A DNA stretch of 64,000 bases from contig NC_086097.1 in assembly GCF_963921235.1 (NCBI RefSeq), positions 2,480,001-2,544,000 on the forward strand, given 5' to 3'. Positions 31,996-57,075 of the stretch are shown here, piece after piece. Both the position numbers and the translations under genes were made by a program. The notes under the pieces were generated by a model. The model did not search any database. It was not told where the DNA came from and was given only the letters and a program-made list of their open reading frames with translations. Numbering within the stretch: the stretch's first letter is position 1; each line of letters starts with the position of its first letter. This DNA comes from Mobula hypostoma. Taxonomy: Eukaryota.

Positions 31996-33674
31996 GATCT
32001 ATTCTTCCACATAAACACTGACATGAATCTTATTTGACTGGTTAGTTATAGGGAGCTTTACAACCAAAATTATTCCCATGCTTAATCAATGGATTCATAA
32101 AAGATGAAGCAAAATTCTAGTCCTGATTGATTTCAAAGTTCAAATGTCCAAAATAAAATTTTATCAACATACATAGATGTCATTTTCTTGAAGGCATTCA
32201 TAATAAATACAAACAAACAATAGAATCAATGGAAAACCTCACTCGACAGAAATGGACAAACATCCAGTGTGTAAAAGATAACAAACTGTAAATATAAAAA
32301 AGGGAAAAATAACAATCAATAAATAAATAAACAAACAAACAAACAAGCAAGCAAGCACGAGTTATAGAGTCCTTAAAAGTGAGTCCATAGGTTGTGGATT
32401 CATTTCAGTTTTGGGGTGAGTGAAGTTACCCCCTCTGTTCAAGACCCTGATGGATGAGGAGTAATAACTGTTCCTGACCTGGTGATGTGGATCCTGAGGC
32501 AATGATGCCTCCTTCCTGATGGCAGAAGCCAGAAGGGAGCATGACCTGGATGGTGGAGGTTCCTGATGATGGATGCTGTTTTCCTGTGATGTCGCTCCAT
32601 GTAAACGTGCTCAACGGTTGGGAGGGCCTTATCTGTCATGGACTGGGTCTGCCCCATCAGTGAGCCACTTTGTGATCGGAGTAGCCAGCCAGTGTTTTGG
32701 TGGAGCCAGCTGGCGTGTCGGAGGAGCAGGACTGGATTTTGGAGGAGCTGCCCGCTACCCTAAGGGATCGGAGTGGATGCACGAAGGTGGTGAGCAGTGT
32801 AACCGTGGGTGATTGACTTGGACATCTCTCTTGCAATGTAAGATGCTGCAAGCCTGTTTCCCTTGTTTGGTGGTATGACAGGTGGCAGGGAAGCTGTGCA
32901 GCCTTGGTTATAGCGAACCGTGGGTTTGCCTGCTGGTGCAGTCCAGCAGGAGAGAAGCCGAAGGCAGCACAGAGTGGTGTCTGTGCTCGGCTGGGGGCGA
33001 GCCGCTCCCATCGCTGCTGCCCTCCAGTGTTCGATCGGTGAATTGCCAGGAACTACCATCAATGTGCGGGACACGTCTGTGAGGTTTCTTTTTGCTTGCT
33101 ATTTTGAAAGTGCTGCATATATTTTGCACCTTGGCTCCAGAGAATGCTGTTTTGTTCAGCTGTACCCATGTATGGTTGAATGATAATTATATTTGGCATG
33201 ATTTTGATTTTTTTGATTTGATTTACTACTTTCTGTATCTAACAAAATAGCTTAACGCTCGGTATAAACACCCAGCTTGACATTTTCCTGTAATATATAG
33301 TCTAATTTAGCACTGCACAGATTTCTCTGTAGACAATGGTACTCCAGCTTTTCTCAAATTTGGCTCCTTGTATATTTTGAAAAATAAAACAGAACATTTA
33401 GTGCATGGAATGAAAGATCAAGCTGGATGGATTTCCATCCTCGTATTGGGATACCACTGTTTGTTGGATGCATTAAAGACTTGGAGGATATTGTAGTGAA
33501 ATAAGATCACATACAAGAACAATGTCACAGTGGATTGTACACTGGCATTATCCTGTCACCTCTTACACCTGAATTCAAAGTAGAAACTCATTTCAAATGA
33601 GAGCAATGAGGCAAGTTAAAAGGTTTTAGTCATGGATTTATCAGATAGAAAAGAAAGTTGATGACTTTTCATTG

Positions 33675-34185
33675 TCGTAGAAAAGTACAGCATAGGAACA
33701 GGCCCTTTGACCCATGCTGAAACAATTTAAACTCTCTACTCCCATCGACCTGCACCAGGACCATAGCCCTCCATACCCCTACTATCAATGTACCTAAGCA
33801 AACTTCCCTTAAAAGTTGAAACTGAGCTCACACACACCACTTGTGCTGGCAGCTCACTCCACGCTCTGAGAGAAGTTGTTTCCCGTCATGTTCCTCATAA
33901 ATTTCTCACCTTTCATCTTCAACCCATGACCTCAAGTTATAGTGCCACCCAAACACAGTGGAAAAAGGCTGCTTGCATTTACCCTATCTATACCCCTCAT
34001 AATTTTGTATACCTCCAACAAATCTCCTCTCAATCTTCTATGTTCCAAGGAATAAAGTCCTAACTCAGTCCATCTTTCCTTATAACTCAGGTCCTTCAGT
34101 CCCAGCACCATCCTGTAATTTTCCCTGTACTCTTTCAACCTTATTTACATCTTTTCTGTAGGTAGCTGACCAAAACTGCACACAA
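33675..34185 (-). mobile_element. CR1 3' fragment (continues at ~37780-37830 after nested insertions)
   Basis: ORF 33932-34138: LYSLEHRRLRGDLLEVYKIMRG. Confidence 0.82.
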
Positions 34186-34344
34186 ATCAAATCAAATCAA
34201 ATTCAATTATCATTCAAATCATACGTGGACACAGCTGAGAGATACACCATTCCTCTGGGGCCACAGTGCAAAACATTCAAATTAGCAAGCAAACATTCAA
34301 AAATAGCAATTAACATAATTCAGAGTTACAAAATACACATGGAC

Positions 34345-35672
34345 TAAGATGTTAACTGTCCTGTGCTATCACCAGTGGGATCATCAGTTGATCTGCCACC
34401 TGTCTTCAGGAGTTTCGGCCCGCTTATGATCAAGACTCCCTCGAGGTGGTGGGCCAGCAGTGCTAAAGCACCTCCTCCCACTGGTGAGCTTAAAAACTTG
34501 GCATCTGCCTCTATCAGAGTTGTTGGTCACTTCCACCCAACAGATAGTCTACTCTTCAGGTGTCTATGCAACTACTGAAGGGTTTGCAAGATATGTATAC
34601 ACTGTCTGACTATCTGCCCCTCTGGACATACTTGGTCCACACCCATGCTGATCCTGTCTCTGCTGCCTCAGCTACAGCCCTGCTGGTTGACTTGATCTCT
34701 CTTCTAGTGAAGCTAAGGTCACACAGCCACTTCTGGAGAGTGAACGCGATAAACTCACGGCACCCTACTTCGAATGGATAGCATGAGACCTTCCACCCTC
34801 TGTCTCTGCACTCTGATCTTAACTCTGCATATTTGGTTAACTTGCGCTCATGGGCTTCATCGATGTTGTCTTCCCAGGGGATTGTGAGTTCACCAATAAC
34901 CGCTTCTCTACTGGTGTCAGACCATACGATTATATCTGGTTGCTGTGTAGGCTTTGTTTTCTTCAACTCAACCAAACCAAACCCGTACTTTCCAACATCG
35001 TAAATCATATCGCCCATCACTTCCAACTTTCTCTTTGATGTTCCCCTGAGCGTGTTCTCCAACATCATACTGATATCCTCATCAAATACACGCCAAGCCT
35101 TCTCATCTGCCATTGCTGGCCACTTGACCTTCCTCTTCTTCTCTACCTCCTCGCCACTGCCATCATGCCAAGAATCTACCTGGGTACTGTGGTCTGAAAC
35201 CTGACCTGGGTTATCTCTCGTCTGACCTGGAGTATGATCACTCTCTCCAGAGTAAATCGCTGTGGCTTGTGAATCAGTGGTTGAAAAGACCACATCATCT
35301 GTGCTTGGTGAAGTAATCTCATCTTCATCCACTGGGATGGAATAGCACTTCGACTTTGCTTGATGGACTCGCAAACCTTTAATGCTGGAAAACGCTCTCC
35401 CACACCAACACACTGGACACTGAGAACCTCTTATCCTAGCTCTTGGTCATAGTCGTTCCCTGTAATTAACTGTATCCGTCCGATTGGGTCCATCATTCTC
35501 CCTCCCTCTCGGAGGACCCCGAGGGTATGTTTCTCGGTGTAAACTAGAAGCTTCAAGAGGTGGGTGCTCTTCTGAGCTGGTGCCCGGACTGCCAATCCCG
35601 ACACCCCCGGTGCCAGTCTTTCCTGGCTGTCCGCTGTCTCTCCACGCTGTCACCCGACTATTCCTGGTTGCC
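34345..35672 (-). mobile_element. HERO-clade (R2-like, REL endonuclease) non-LTR retrotransposon, RT internally deleted
   Basis: ORF 34610-35413: CWCGRAFSSIKGLRVHQAKSKC zinc finger and KVKWP...W..FDED region joined directly to PDIIVWS...ELTIPWE...AHERKLTKY...PFEVGCR (PD-(D/E)xK REL nuclease); upstream in-frame segment 35447-35674 separated by one TGA. Confidence 0.85.
34369..34487 (-). ncRNA. Non-circularly permuted (pseudoknotted) hammerhead ribozyme candidate in the HERO 3' UTR
   Basis: Core CUGAUGA (34387-34381), GAAA (34416-34413), GUC (34436-34434); helices UUGAUC/GAUCAA, GGCCC/GGGCC, GGAGU/ACUCC, CCACCU/AGGUGG and 12-bp UCACCAGUGGGA/UCCCACUGGUGA all perfectly complementary. Confidence 0.8.
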
Positions 35673-35674
35673 AA

Positions 35675-36870
35675 AATACTTTATACTTTATTGTCGCCAA
35701 ACAATTGATACCAGAATGTACAATCATCACAGCGATATTTGATTCTGCGCTTCCCGCTCCCTGGATTACAAATCAATAGTAAATATTAAAAATTTAAATT
35801 ATAAATCATAAATAGAAAATAGAAAAAACAGAAAGTAAGGTAGTGCAAAAAAACTGACAGGCAGGTCCGTATATTTGGAGGCTACGGCCCAGATCCGGGT
35901 CAGGATCCGTTCAGCAGTCTTATCACAGTTGGAAAGAAGCTGTTCCCAAATCTGGCCGCACGAGTCTTCAAGCTCCTGAGCCTTCTCCCGGAGGGAAGAA
36001 TGATGAAAAATGTGTTGGCTGGGTGGGTCGTGTCCTTGATTATCCTGGTAGCACTGCTCCAACAGCGTGCGGTGTAAAGTGAGTCCAAGGACGGAAGATT
36101 GGTTTGTGTGATGTGCTGCGCCATGTTCACGATCTTCTGCAGCTTCTTTCGGTCTTGGACAGGACAACTTCCATACCAGGTTGTGATGCACCCTAGAAGA
36201 ATGCTTTCTACAGTGTGTCTATAAAAATTAGTTAGGGTTTTAGGGGACAGGCCAAATTTCTTTAGTTTTCTCAGGAAGTAAAGGCGCTGGTGGGCCTTCT
36301 TGGCAGTGGACTTTGCTTAGTCGGACCAAGTCAGGTCATTTGTGATATTGACCCCGAGGAACTTAAAGCTTTTGACCTGTTCCACTTGCACACCACCAAT
36401 GTAAATTGGGTCGTGCAGTCCGCTACTTCTTCTGAAGTCAACAACCAATTCCTTCGTCTTGCTGACGTTGAGGGATAGGTTATTGCCTTCGCACCATGCC
36501 ACCAGATTCTTAATTTCCTCTCTGTACTCAAACTCATCATTACCCAAGATATGGCCTACAATTGTTGTGTCATCAGCAAACTTATATATTTGAGTTCGAT
36601 GGAAACTTGGCTACAAAATCATGGGTGTGTAGTGAGTACAGCAGGGGGCTGAGTACACAGCCTTGTGGGACACCGGTGCTCAGAGTGATTGTAGAGGAGA
36701 GCTTGTCCCCTATTTTTGCAGCCTGGGTCCTGTCTGTGAGGAAGTTGAAGATCCAGCTGCAGATCTGAGTGCTAAGGCCCAGGTTCTGGAGCTTAGGAAT
36801 CAGTTTATTTGGAATGATGGTATTAAAGGCAGAGCTGTAGTCAATGAAAAGGAGCCTTACGTATGCGTAA
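35675..36870 (-). mobile_element. Rex1/Babar LINE, 5'-truncated RT to 3' tail
   Basis: [18 protein letters not shown]...[44 protein letters not shown]...NSFFPTVIRLLN; tail AATAAAGTATAAAGTA. Confidence 0.92.
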
Positions 36871-38119
36871 GCAAACGTAATAGCAAGCAAAGAAGCACAT
36901 TTACTTGAAAAGAAAACCTGCATGCAGCCCAAGTACACTGAGTGACAATGTCCAGCAGACAAAGTTGGTCTCCCGGCAGTATACAACGCACGCAATCCAG
37001 CCTGTCTTTCCACCGCTCAAATGTGGGAAGGCAGCACTGACAGGAGAGGCCAGGCCCCCGATCAGTTCAGACGCCAAGTCTCTCACCTGCTGCAGCAACA
37101 GGCAAGCCTGATGCTTGAGGCCTAGTTCTCACTACAACTAACACTAGAAACCTCCCATGTCTCCTACCCCTCCAGCAGACAAGGGAATCAGGCCTGTGAG
37201 AACTTGCATTTTATCACTGTCCAACAGAGTCTTGTGATCTCAAGTGAAATGTCTGAGACAATCTCCCACAGTTATATTGCACCAACTCCAATGCTTCCAA
37301 GTAGTGGGCGGCAACATGGTCTGCAGTCAGCTCAGCTCCTCCGAACCCAAACCAGCTCCTCCGATATCCCGACAGGCTCCTCCGATATTCTGGTGGGTTC
37401 CTCCATATCCTGACTGGCTCTTCTGGTATCCTGACCAGCTCCTTCTCCACCATGCCAGCCTCAGCCAGCCCATTCCACACCTCGGCTGGCTCTCTCTCCA
37501 ACATCACGGCCGGCCCTTCAACACCTCGGCCAGCTCTCCCTCTATCGTCATAGCAAGCCCCTTTGACACCTCGACCGCTCTGCTGCCAACACCAGTCCAA
37601 CTACTCCGATCAACGAGCAGCTCACTGATGGAGTGGCCCTGTAGTGCTCAATGTCCTTGGAGTAGAATTGTCTTTGGATCATAAAAAAGCAAATTTTACA
37701 GAGGGAAAATCATCTTTGGTTGGCCCCCGAAAGGCTGCTGTTTTTACACACGCCACCATCTTACTGGAAGTTGGGATCTAATATTCCACCTCACCAACGT
37801 TTTATACAGCGTCATTCTGTATTTGATTCTATATGTATTGATAAGCAGTTCGACACTCTACAGTTGAAAAGACTGGAACTTAGCAAAGAAAAATTTTAAA
37901 AAGAGGTGCTTCAAGAAAGGAAATTTTTAAAAACTGGTCATAAACTGAAGAGGTTCTGAGGATCCTGGAAAGTCATAAAAAAACAACAGCACAGAAACAG
38001 GCCCTTTGGCCCATCTCGTCCGTGCCTAGCCCCATTTACTCTGAGGAAATCTCAGGCAACTCGCACAGAGTGCTGGAGGAACTCTGCAGGTCAAGCAGCG
38101 TCAATGGAAATGAACGGGT

Positions 38120-48387: not shown

Positions 48388-50895
48388 GAAAACATAGAAA
48401 ACCTACAACACAATACAGGCCCTTCGGCCTCCAAAGCTGTGCCGAACACATACTTTAGAAATTACCTGGGAACACTCATAACACACTGGAGGAACTCAGC
48501 AGGTCAGGCAGCATCCGTGGAAAAGATCGGTCGACGTTTCGGGCTGAAACTCTTCGTCAGGACTGTAGAGGGAAGGGGCAGAGGCCCTATAAAGAAGGTG
48601 GGGGAGGGTGGGAAGGAGAAGGCTGGTAGGTTCCAGGTGAAAAACCAGTAAGGGGAGAGATAAAGGGGTGGGGGAGGGGAGGCAGGGAGGTGATAGGCAG
48701 GAAAGGTGAAGAAGGAATAGGGGAAAACACAATGGGTAGTAGAAGGAGGCGGAACCATGAGGGAGGTGATAGGCAGCTGGGGGAGGGGCAGAGTGACATA
48801 GGGATAGAGGAGGGAGGGGGAGGGAATTACCGGAAGTTGGAGAATTCTATGTTCATACCAAGGGGCTGGAGACTACCTAGACGGTATATGAGGTGTTGCT
48901 CCTCCAACCTGAGTTTAGCCTCATCGTGACAGTACAAGAGGCCATGTATGGACATATCTGAATGGGAGTGGGAAGCAGAGTTGAAGTGGGTGGCTACTGG
49001 GAGATCCTGTCTGTCTTGGCGGACGGAGCGGAGGTGCTGGACGAAGCGGTCCCCCAATCTGCATCGGGTTTCACTGCTGTAGAGGAGGCCGCACTGGGAG
49101 CACCGGATGCAATAGATGACCCCAACAGACTCACAAGTGAAGTGTTGCCTCACTTGGAAGGACTGTTTGGGGCTCTGAATGGTGGCAAGAGAGGAGGTAT
49201 AGGGACAGGTGTAGCACTTGCGCTTACAGGGATAAGTGCCAGATGGGAGATCCGTGGGGAGGGACGTGTGGACCAGGGAGTTGCGGAGGGAGCAATCCCT
49301 GCGGAAAGCGGAGAGGGGTGGAGAGGGAAAGATGTGCTTAGTGGTGGGGTCCTGTTGAAGGTGGCGGAAGTTGCGGAGGATAATGTGCTGGATCCGGAAG
49401 CTGGTGGGGTGGTAGGTGAATTACCTAGGGTTACCCATAGCCCTCTATTTTTCTAAACTACATGTACCTATCCAGGATTCTTTTAAAAGACCCTGTCATA
49501 TCTGCCTCCAACAACGTTGTGGCAGCCCTTTCCATGCACTCACCACTCTGCATTTAAAAAAAAACATAACCCCTGGCATCTCCTCTGTACCTACTTCCAA
49601 GCATCTTAAAACTGTGCCCTTTCGTGTTAACCATTTCAACACTGGGAAAAAGCCTGTAGCTATCCACATCATCAATGCCTCTCATCATCTTATACACCTC
49701 TATCAGGTCACCTTTCATCCTCCATCACTTTAAGGAGAAAAGGCTGAGTTCACTCAAACTATTCTCATAAGGCATGCTCCCCAATCCAGGCAACATCCTT
49801 GTAAATCTCCTCTGCATCCTTTCTATAGTTTCCACATCCTTCCTGTAGTGAGATGACCAGAACTGAGCACAGTACTCCAAGTGGAGTTACCTCTCGACTC
49901 TTGAACTCAGTCCCACGATTGATGAAGGCCAATACACTGTATGCCTTCTTAACCACGGAGTCAACTTGCACAGCAGCTTTGAGTATCCTATGGACTCAGA
50001 CCCCAAGATCCCTCTGATCCTCCACACTGCCAAGAGTCTTACCATTAATACTATATTCTGCCATCATATTTAACCTACCAAAATGAGCTGCCTCACACTT
50101 ATCTGGGTCGAACTCCATCTGCCACTTCTCAGCCCATTTTTGCATCTAATCAATGTCCCGCTGTAACCTCTTACAGACCTCACACTATCCACAACACCCC
50201 CAACCTTTGTGTCATCAGCAAATTTACTAACCCATCCCTCCACTTCCTCATCCAGGTCATTTATAAAAATCACAAAGAGTAAGGGTCCCAGAACAGATCC
50301 CTAAGACACACCACTGGTCACCGACCGCCATGCAGAGTATGACCTGTCTACAACCACTCTTTGCCTTCTGTGGGCAAGCCAATTCTGGATCCACAAAGCA
50401 ATGTCCCCTTGGATCCCATGCCTCCTTACTTTCTCAATAAGCCTTGCATGGGGTACCTTATCAAATGCCTTGCTGAAATCCATATACACTACATCTACTG
50501 CTCTACCTTCATCAATATGTTTAGTCACATCCTCAAAAAAATCAGTCAGGCTCCTAAGGCATGCCCTGCCTTTGACAAAGCCATTCTGATTATTCTGAAT
50601 CATATTATGACTCTCCAAATGTTCATAAATCCTGCCTCTCAGGATCTTCTCCATCAACTTACCAACCACTGTATTAAGACTCACTGGTTTATAATTTCCA
50701 GGGCTATCTCTACTCCCTTTCTTGAATAAAGGAACAACATCTGCAACCCTCCAATCCTTCGGAACCTCTCCCGTCCCCATTGATGCAAAGGTCATTGCAA
50801 GAGGCTCAGCAATCTCCTCCCACAGTAGTCCAGGGTACATCTCGTCCGGTCCCGGTGACTTATCCAACTTAATGTTTTGCAAAAGCTCCAGCACA
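48388..50895 (-). mobile_element. CR1 ORF2 3' half (same subfamily as 1-1585), interrupted by a Penelope element
   Basis: ORFs 50301-50915, 50070-50273, 49765-49971; tail gaaaacatagaaaacctac at ~48388. Confidence 0.92.
48471..49418 (-). mobile_element. Penelope-like retroelement (GIY-YIG plus 3' end with hammerhead motif 48529-48565) inserted in a CR1 tail
   Basis: ORF 48827-49153: GVIYCIRCSQCGLLYSSETRCRLGDRFVQHL...LQPLGMNIEF; flanks AATTACCT(A)GGG on both sides. Confidence 0.9.
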
Positions 50896-55254: not shown

Positions 55255-57075
55255 CTAAAAGATTTTTTAAGTATATAAAGAGTAAAAGAGGGTTGAGGGT
55301 AGAGAGAAGGACCAATAGAAAATGACGCTGGAGATATTGTAATGAGAGACGCAGAGATGACAGAGGAACTGAATGCGTATTTTACATCAGTCTTCACTGT
55401 GGAAGACAGTTGCAGTATCCTGAACATTCAAGAGTGTCAGGGAAGTGAAGTTTGTGCAGTGAAAATTACGACTGAGAAGGTGCTCAGGAAGCTTAATGGT
55501 CTGAGGGTGGATAAATCTCCTGGACCTGATGGAATGCACCCTCGGGTTCTGAAGGAAGTAGCTGGAGAGATTGCGGAGGCATTAACAATGATCCTTCAAG
55601 AATCGATAGATTCTGGCATTGTACTGGATGACTGGAAAGTTGCAAGTGTTACTCCACTATTTAAGAAGGGTGGGAGGCAGCAGAAAGGAAACTATAGACC
55701 TGTTAACCTGACATCAGTGGTTGAGAAGTTGTTGGAATTGATTGTTAGGGATGAGATTATGGAGTGCCTGAAGGCACATGACAGGATAGGCCAAAACCAG
55801 CATGGTTTCCTGAAAGGAAAATCCTGCCTGACAAACCTACTGTAATTCTTTGAGGAAATTACGAGCAGGGTAGACAAAGGAGATGCAGTAGATGTGGTGT
55901 ACTTGGATTTTCAGAAGGCCTTTGACAAGGTGCCGCACATGAGGTTGCTTAGCAAGATAAGAGCCCATGGAATTACAAGGAAGTTACTAGTGTGGGTGGA
56001 GCATTGGCTGATCGGCAGGAAACAGAGAGTGGGAATCAAGGGATCCTATTCTGACTGGCTGCCGGTTACCAGTGGAGTTCCACAGGGATAGGTGTTGGGA
56101 GCACTGCTTTTTACGATGTATGTCAATGATTTGGACTATGGGATTAATGAATTTGTAGCTAATTTTGCCGATGATACAAAGGTAGGTGGAGGAGCGGGTA
56201 GTGTTGAGGAAACAAAGAGCCTGCAGAAAGACTTAGGTAGTTTAGGGGAATGGGCAAAGAAGTGGCAAATGAAATACAATGTTAGAAAGTCATGCACTTT
56301 GGTGGAAGAAATAAATGGTTGGACTATTATTTAGATGGGGAGAGAATTCAAAATGCAGAGATGCAAAGGGACTTGGGAGTCCTTGTGCAAGATACCCTAA
56401 AGTTGAGTCGGTAGTGAAGAAGGCAAATGCAATGTTGGCATTCATTTCTAGAGGTATAGAATGTAAGAGCAGGGATGTGATGTTGAGGCTCTATAAGGCA
56501 CTCGTGAGACCACACTTGGAGTATTGTATACAGTTTTGGGATCCTTATTTTAGAAAGGATATACTGATATTGGAGAGGGTTCAGAGAAGAGTCATGAGAA
56601 TGATTCCAGGAATGAAAGGGTTACCGTATGAGGAACGTCTGGCAGCTCTTGGGCTGTATTCCCTGGAGTTCAGGAGAATGAGGGGGGATCTCATAGAAAC
56701 ATTCTGAATGTTAAAAGGCCTGAACAGATTAGATATGGCAAAGTTGTTTCCCATGGTAGGGGATTCTAGGACAAGAGGGCATGATTTTAGGATTGAAGGG
56801 CATCCATTTAGAACTGAAATGTGGAGAAATTACTTTCATCAGAGTGTGGTAAATCTGTGGAACTTGTTGTCATGGGTGACTGTGGAGGCCAAGTCACTGG
56901 GTGTATTTAAGGCAGATGTAGATAGATTCTTGATTAGCCAGGGCATCAAAGGGTATGGGGTGAAAGCAGGGGAGTGGGGATGACTGGAGAAATTGGATCA
57001 GCCCGTGATTGAATGGCAGAGCAGACTCGATGGGCCGAATGGCCTACTTCTGCTGCTATACCTTATGGTCTTATT
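55255..57075 (+). mobile_element. CR1 ORF2 RT plus 3' tail
   Basis: ORFs 55342-55845, 55894-56091, 56092-56334 (ANFADDTK), 56315-56983. Confidence 0.93.

Follow-up and report, generated by a model that had tools for sequence, protein, structure and literature searches.

The stretch at 35674-34322 (minus strand) of the window, by which we mean the whole 64,000-nucleotide piece of Mobula hypostoma DNA that was analysed, is very probably one dead copy of an abundant R2-group LINE that lost its reverse transcriptase (RT) through one sporadic in-frame deletion. [quoted passage not shown] One 2475-bp deletion between two CCA triplets would have taken out the RT and the knuckle together. The window copy has no RT, no start codon before residue 112 and no sister copies; it neither moves nor founds a family. 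Sporadic internally deleted LINE insertions of this kind are a known and common sort of relic.

The first-pass annotation, made from the sequence of the window, had left two readings side by side: a chance in-frame deletion, or a non-autonomous family that borrows RT in trans. The first of these is supported by a unique junction and by neutral decay of the frame, and the second gives way to the unique junction. Had there been an RLE-LINE derivative that kept its nuclease and borrowed RT, non-autonomous retroelements would have gained a new type; that reading failed. An in-frame fusion of domains within a repeat can come from a single neutral deletion, and a count of the junction in the genome settles the matter quickly.

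A zinc finger runs in frame into the nuclease

The window copy is made up of the following parts.

34322..35674, minus strand: internally deleted RLE-type LINE copy, 1353 bp; both ends are the ends of matches to other copies
34937..35674, minus strand: 5' segment of 738 bp, equal to codons 1-246 in the ORF of the family, with the zinc finger and the N-terminal region
35447..35449, minus strand: TGA stop, CGA by origin, from CpG decay; site compared in 17 aligned copies
35345..35419, minus strand: zinc finger C-x2-C-x-C-x12-H-x6-C, CPVCWCGRAFSSIKGLRVHQAKSKC; from the sequence and a sub-threshold Pfam zf-C2H2 match
34937..34939, minus strand: deletion junction, one CCA (Pro) in place of the two CCA triplets that lie ~2.47 kb apart in full-length copies
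34610..34939, minus strand: restriction-like endonuclease domain, 109 codons, and its stop at 34612-34610; motifs located
34322..34609, minus strand: 3' UTR, 288 nt, ending in ...TGTATTTTGTAACTCT and with no poly(A); from the 3' ends of 18 other copies

The copy is bordered by unrelated sequence on both sides, and a target-site duplication of at least 5 bp was looked for around it and not seen. The open frame described in the first-pass annotation is real, but it has 278 codons from stop to stop (35446-34613, minus strand) and not 267. It begins right after the TGA at 35449-35447 and closes at the stop 34612-34610; upstream of the TGA the same frame is open to 35680. The finger, an acidic Ser/Thr-rich stretch, WPAMADEK...KPTQQ and the nuclease motifs follow one another along the frame in this order. 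KPTQQ at 34954-34940 is followed without a gap by PDIIVWS at 34939-34919, after which come ELTIPWE (34891-34871), KLTKY (34843-34829) and EVG (34771-34763), all on the minus strand. The RLE motif set PD...(D/E)...K is present in the copy as PDIIVWS, ELTIPWE and KLTKY. The in-frame passage from a CxC...H...C finger into the nuclease at KPTQQ|PDIIVWS, as first described, was borne out at 34937-34939, and the PD, E-L-T-x-P-W-E, K..KY and EVG motifs said to remain were all located in the frame.

The finger of the window ORF matches Pfam zf-C2H2 at E 0.008 and 17 bits, under the 25.2 cut-off, and it is kept in the protein homologues P0002 and P0010. Pfam returned no RT in the window ORF, and the CCHC knuckle is missing from the copy; the absence of both had been read correctly from the sequence, and both sit in the segment that the copy lacks relative to full-length copies. 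It had also been noted that no ATG stands ahead of PAMADEK, and the first methionine of the 278-residue frame is indeed residue 112, downstream of the finger.

Directly next to the 5' end of the copy lies another LINE, which meets it with its 3' end (minus strand, from 35675 to about 37016); the tail of this LINE ends ...aataaagtataaagtat, and RT-like frames occur in it at 36317-36610 and at 36582-37016. The window was also checked for a second member of the family, and none was found; only distant RT matches occur there, at 50259-50771 and 55477-56304.

Full-length relatives retain the RT and the knuckle

The host genome was searched as 3.48 Gb in 200 contigs. The search gave at least 2035 first-look candidates for the sequence, and 40 of these were scored. 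The match to the 5' part ends at the breakpoint (query 763-765, once 749) in every one of the 39 scored places besides the window, and each of the 29 loci fetched (29/29) runs on past 34937 into a common conserved text, agcaggcgccagaagg.... The 5' segment of the window copy is 94.6-96.5% identical to those of these 29 other loci. The full-length partner that the first-pass annotation advised looking for was found in this way, as a family of elements of ~3.82 kb. Among 20 loci of 5.2 kb each, 16 have a 5' segment of 738 bp and a 3' segment of 618 bp with 2416-2473 bp between them; the other four are one with an extra insertion, the internally deleted L042, and two without the 3' segment in range. 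The segment missing from the window, ~2.47 kb, carries the RT and the CCHC knuckle.

No full-length copy has an unbroken ORF. The best of them, L045, reads through 701 aa, one stop and 477 aa, and is open from the element's first base. Its part that is missing from the window matches RVT_1 at E 3.8e-16 and zf-RVT at E 4e-4, the latter under cut-off, and its CCHC knuckle is CAACGEKGTLQHTLSAC. The nearest solved relatives of the L045 RT are R2 and L1 ORF2 proteins (E 5e-19 to 2e-9). The window copy is a derivative, and not a complete member, of the RLE-type (R2-group) non-LTR retrotransposons, because RT is absent from it but present in relatives within the segment that it has lost. As a separate observation, the open frame of the family ORF begins with base 1 of the element, and its first ~190 codons have no ATG in either L045 (L045:627-4452, minus strand) or the window copy (35446-35680).

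Eighteen other copies have a 3' end that falls within a few bases of that of the window copy, with unrelated flanks beyond, and the last 149 nt are 99-100% identical to the 39 other scored places. A fixed 3' end together with variable 5' truncation was seen in the family, in that upstream partial copies start at many points. Contig depth, which is a rough guide, is ~50-100x higher over the 3' end than over the 5' end.

The deletion junction occurs at one locus

Aligned in 16 full-length copies, the left breakpoint reads ...CAGCAACCA|AGCAGG and the right one ...TTGCGTCCA|GATATA. They have only CCA in common, and the window retains one CCA at 34939-34937. The loss amounts to 2475 bp, or 825 codons, in frame (1179 codons on L045 against 354), and the resulting fusion joins the N-terminal 246 codons to the 109-codon nuclease. 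That the breakpoint landed just before the nuclease is an accident. Splicing was considered as the cause of the deletion and rejected, because no placement of the breakpoints within the 3-bp ambiguity gives GT..AG ends.

A junction 36-mer, scanned through the 3.48-Gb genome at up to 3 mismatches, gave 1 match, the window itself; the reversed control gave 0. With a 120-bp junction query, the window alone spans the junction among 40 scored places, and in the remaining 39 the match is confined to the nuclease side. That the junction is unique rests mainly on the 36-mer scan, which is blind to copies with more than 3 mismatches in 36; the other DNA searches scored 40 candidates each. The junction is known from this assembly alone. 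The first-pass annotation had called for a count of copies with the identical breakpoint and had named a junction unique to this locus as the result that would speak against a non-autonomous family borrowing RT in trans. The 36-mer scan (≤3 mismatches) found no second such copy, and with the junction at one locus only that family was abandoned. The unique junction, together with decay like that of dead full-length relatives, upholds the chance in-frame deletion.

The same searches bear on a nascent or rare element resembling the Short Internally Deleted Elements (SIDEs), whose deleted RNA would have been inserted by RT in trans and whose further copies would have been missed. We consider this very unlikely. 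Besides the single match of the 36-mer in 3.48 Gb and the window being the only spanning place among the 40 scored, no source copy with the same junction was seen in these searches, and Rfam detected no ribozyme in the window or in two full-length loci. In favour of such an element, the copy begins and ends with the canonical terminal bases of the full-length element and is without the 5' linker typical of ordinary copies (described below), and R2 SIDEs are reported to show internally deleted RLE-LINEs propagating (PMC3414825).

The junction could also have been made by the assembly, two parts of a repeated element having been misjoined at the 3-bp overlap. In favour of this, the family has more than 2000 candidate copies at ~95% identity. 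Contigs from four runs (X1 and X2, perhaps DNA; X11 and X17, guessed to be RNA) have loose ends at 34937 and 34939 that are the full-length continuation, and among the pieces listed from these four runs none bridges the junction. The halves of the window copy, however, are equally diverged, in order, on one strand and in frame, and they end in canonical element ends; two loci on other contigs have analogous but different internal deletions; and a collapse error would more likely give a standard full-length or truncated copy. An artefact is for these reasons very unlikely.

The frame decays as in dead full-length copies

The window copy and 16 full-length copies were aligned, and each was compared with the majority state of these 17 over the 356 retained codons. 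The window copy carries 8 synonymous changes, 15 non-synonymous changes, 1 stop and no indel; the 16 full-length copies, summed, carry 115 synonymous changes, 226 non-synonymous changes and 17 stops. The synonymous fraction is 0.33 in the window copy versus 0.32 in the full-length copies, and 0.22 is the value expected under uniform random change. The window copy diverges from the majority state by 2.44%, and the full-length copies range from 1.96 to 3.51%. The window copy decays neutrally, like its dead full-length relatives. The open frame is unremarkable here, because 5 of the 16 full-length copies are equally open, with no stop or indel across the same 356 codons. At the site of the TGA (35449-35447), 12 of the 17 aligned copies (the window copy being one of the 17) have CGA, 3 have TGA and 2 have CAA. 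The early guess that this stop is a CpG-decayed CGA is right, since 12 of the 17 copies still read CGA.

A domesticated or expressed host gene for a compact zinc-finger/RLE nuclease might be supposed from the 278 open codons with intact nuclease motifs, and from a nuclease strongly conserved across deuterostomes (57-74% identity). Such a gene is extremely improbable given the counts above: the 8 synonymous versus 16 non-synonymous or stop changes are the pattern of dead copies, and 5 of the 16 dead full-length copies are as open over the same codons. In addition, a stop closely precedes the frame, the first ATG comes only at residue 112, past the finger, and the layout is absent among the 23 homologues described next.

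The 278-aa frame was searched against 5.8 billion proteins (lengths 152-487 aa), which gave 23 matches with query coverage of at most 61%. The RT-less finger-nuclease layout was found in none of the 23, of which the three best-covering were examined. P0002 and P0010 are N-terminal pieces that run on into ...RRQKEISRLRREL, and P0004 is a C-terminal nuclease piece that follows ...ITTLRPDI, as in the full-length layout. The nuclease domain is 57-74% identical to nuclease pieces, as predicted proteins, from Amphiura filiformis (brittle star) and Branchiostoma belcheri (lancelet). Such identity (34610-34939 compared with P0003-P0005 and P0011) is high for a LINE domain across deuterostomes; as a property of these sequences, it could reflect strong constraint or horizontal transfer.

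Head-to-tail 5' extensions in the family

A constant 38-bp linker precedes 25 of the 27 non-deleted copies that have the whole 5' segment (L003-L030 and L043-L061; for example L043:87-1478). The last 19 nt of the linker resemble the first 22 nt of the element. Upstream of the linker lies a 5'-truncated piece of the same element, ~13 to >1460 nt long, which ends at the normal 3' end; true 3' ends of insertions are without the 38 bp. Most full-length copies are in this sense partial head-to-tail dimers, consisting of a truncated piece, the 38 bp and a full element.

Ten loci allowed a comparison, and in 5 of them the upstream piece is closest to the 3' end of its own partner; among the 5 loci with at least 600 nt, this is so in 4. 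Long upstream pieces are 97.1-97.5% identical to their own partner's 3' end versus a mean of ~95.5%. The upstream piece and its partner were therefore probably copied from one source at insertion. The arrangement suggests end-to-end template jumps or dimer RNAs, and the same joint was seen on a contig from a run guessed to be RNA. For R2-group elements in vivo, the head-to-tail 5' extension is relevant to template jumping or to dimer transcripts, and in this respect it may outweigh the main finding.

Other deleted copies and the route of the deletion

Two more internally deleted copies, with other breakpoints, are among the loci in hand. In L042 (the same locus as L002), nt 818 is joined to 3495 in frame, with 287 codons open and the last ~15 nuclease codons kept; this junction is unique among the 40 scored places. 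In L023, nt 830 is joined to 3622, inside the 3' UTR. With two extra deletions at other breakpoints, such deletions therefore recur sporadically, in a locus sample that is biased, as ranking by matched query length favours copies with both ends. Both deleted copies that have coding sequence on each side of the junction (the window copy and L042) are in frame, for which the chance is ~1 in 9, a point that tells against our main reading.

In the window copy and in L042 the sequence begins precisely with base 1 of the element, without the 38-bp linker, and L023 has the linker. The linker is accordingly found in 1 of 3 deleted copies, versus 25 of 27 non-deleted ones. Had the deleted copies been deleted later from ordinary copies, a binomial estimate for at most 1 of 3 having the linker is ~0.014, with small numbers. 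Deleted copies may come by a special route and not by random later deletion.

The deletion in the window copy would have arisen by microhomology. A 3-bp microhomology fits an RT template switch and end-joining after insertion alike, and the route would be one of these two, the switch taking place during cDNA synthesis. We lean slightly towards the template switch, because two of the three deleted copies are without the linker that is present in 25 of 27 non-deleted copies. By either route the product is dead on arrival.

It is very doubtful that the deleted form was both inserted as such, by RT template switch or as RNA in trans, and translated, its predicted zinc-finger/RLE frame being read from a non-AUG or internal start. 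A translated deleted form would be a compact DNA-binding nuclease and a first step towards a protein-coding non-autonomous RLE-LINE, at a copy number of one.

Relation to known elements

LINE clades are defined by the RT domain, and the criterion for the HERO clade is reportedly an RT-domain phylogeny that groups an element with the named HERO elements. The full-length family, judged by its sequence, belongs to the R2 group as an abundant LINE that has one ORF and a restriction-like endonuclease, and the HERO label given to it in the first-pass annotation is plausible. The HERO clade is reported to include HERODr and HEROBf (PMC5678591), and its reported range covers sea urchin, lancelet and fish (PMC9004415). 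The single ORF, RT and C-terminal RLE of the clade are also the layout of the full-length family, and the brittle star and lancelet homologues of the family fit the range reported for HERO (PMC9004415); the window copy itself is without RT.

The R2 proteins 8gh6, 9nl2/9nl3 and 9dou match the L045 RT at E 5e-19 to 1e-10. The RLE of L045, RPDIIVWS...ELTVPWE...KLTKY, aligns with KPDII...DVQV...KRNKY of R2Bm, with a weak match of the RLE to 8gh6 and 9nl3 (E 0.04-0.07); the match over linker and RLE to R2 proteins is likewise weak (E 0.04-0.1). R2 is specific to the 28S gene, whereas every copy of the window family is flanked by different, unrelated sequence.

For L1, sporadic insertions with internal deletions or rearrangements have been reported in cultured-cell assays. 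The internally deleted ones among them are one-off, short-microhomology deletions, dead on arrival, and we see no difference of substance between them and the window copy.

The R2 SIDEs of Drosophila described by Eickbush & Eickbush (2012) show that internally deleted RLE-LINEs can propagate (PMC3414825). As in the window copy, an internal deletion in these elements joins 5' and 3' ends and removes the RT (PMC3414825). R2 SIDEs are multi-copy, spread by TPRT, have variable 5' junctions and keep a 5' ribozyme and little else (PMC3414825), whereas the window copy is a single locus, has no ribozyme detected by Rfam and keeps 355 codons. Those 355 coding codons are kept only through the accident of the breakpoints. 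A second internal-deletion derivative of a LINE is Persaeus, a SIDE of Lepidoptera with the CR1 partner Zenon (PMC6740152). Persaeus is described as widespread, bursting with its partner and having arisen several times (PMC6740152); the window copy differs in having no sister copies. The SIDE concept comes closest to the window copy, but the copy lacks the defining feature of SIDEs, several copies at different sites with one junction.

The 3' UTR and a possibly shared tail

The 3' UTR is retained whole in the window copy. A 3' ribozyme had been proposed for it at first pass; Rfam at E<=1 gave no ribozyme match in positions 33000-37500 of the window or in the full-length loci L045 and L043, and the fold of the 3' UTR has a z-score of -1.29 versus shuffles. 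The first 200 nt score -0.62, and neither region folds better than its shuffles. The proposal gains no support from these results; a divergent ribozyme may still exist.

Contig depth over the last ~90 nt of the element (34322-34412) is several-fold above that over the rest, with a peak at 34368-34413. Many contigs diverge at 34412 into one common unrelated sequence, and at L038:135-223 the last ~89 nt of the element stand behind unrelated sequence. The 3' tail may be shared with another repeat, perhaps a SINE mobilised by the LINE family; if so, this tail-sharing SINE would be the real non-autonomous partner of the family.
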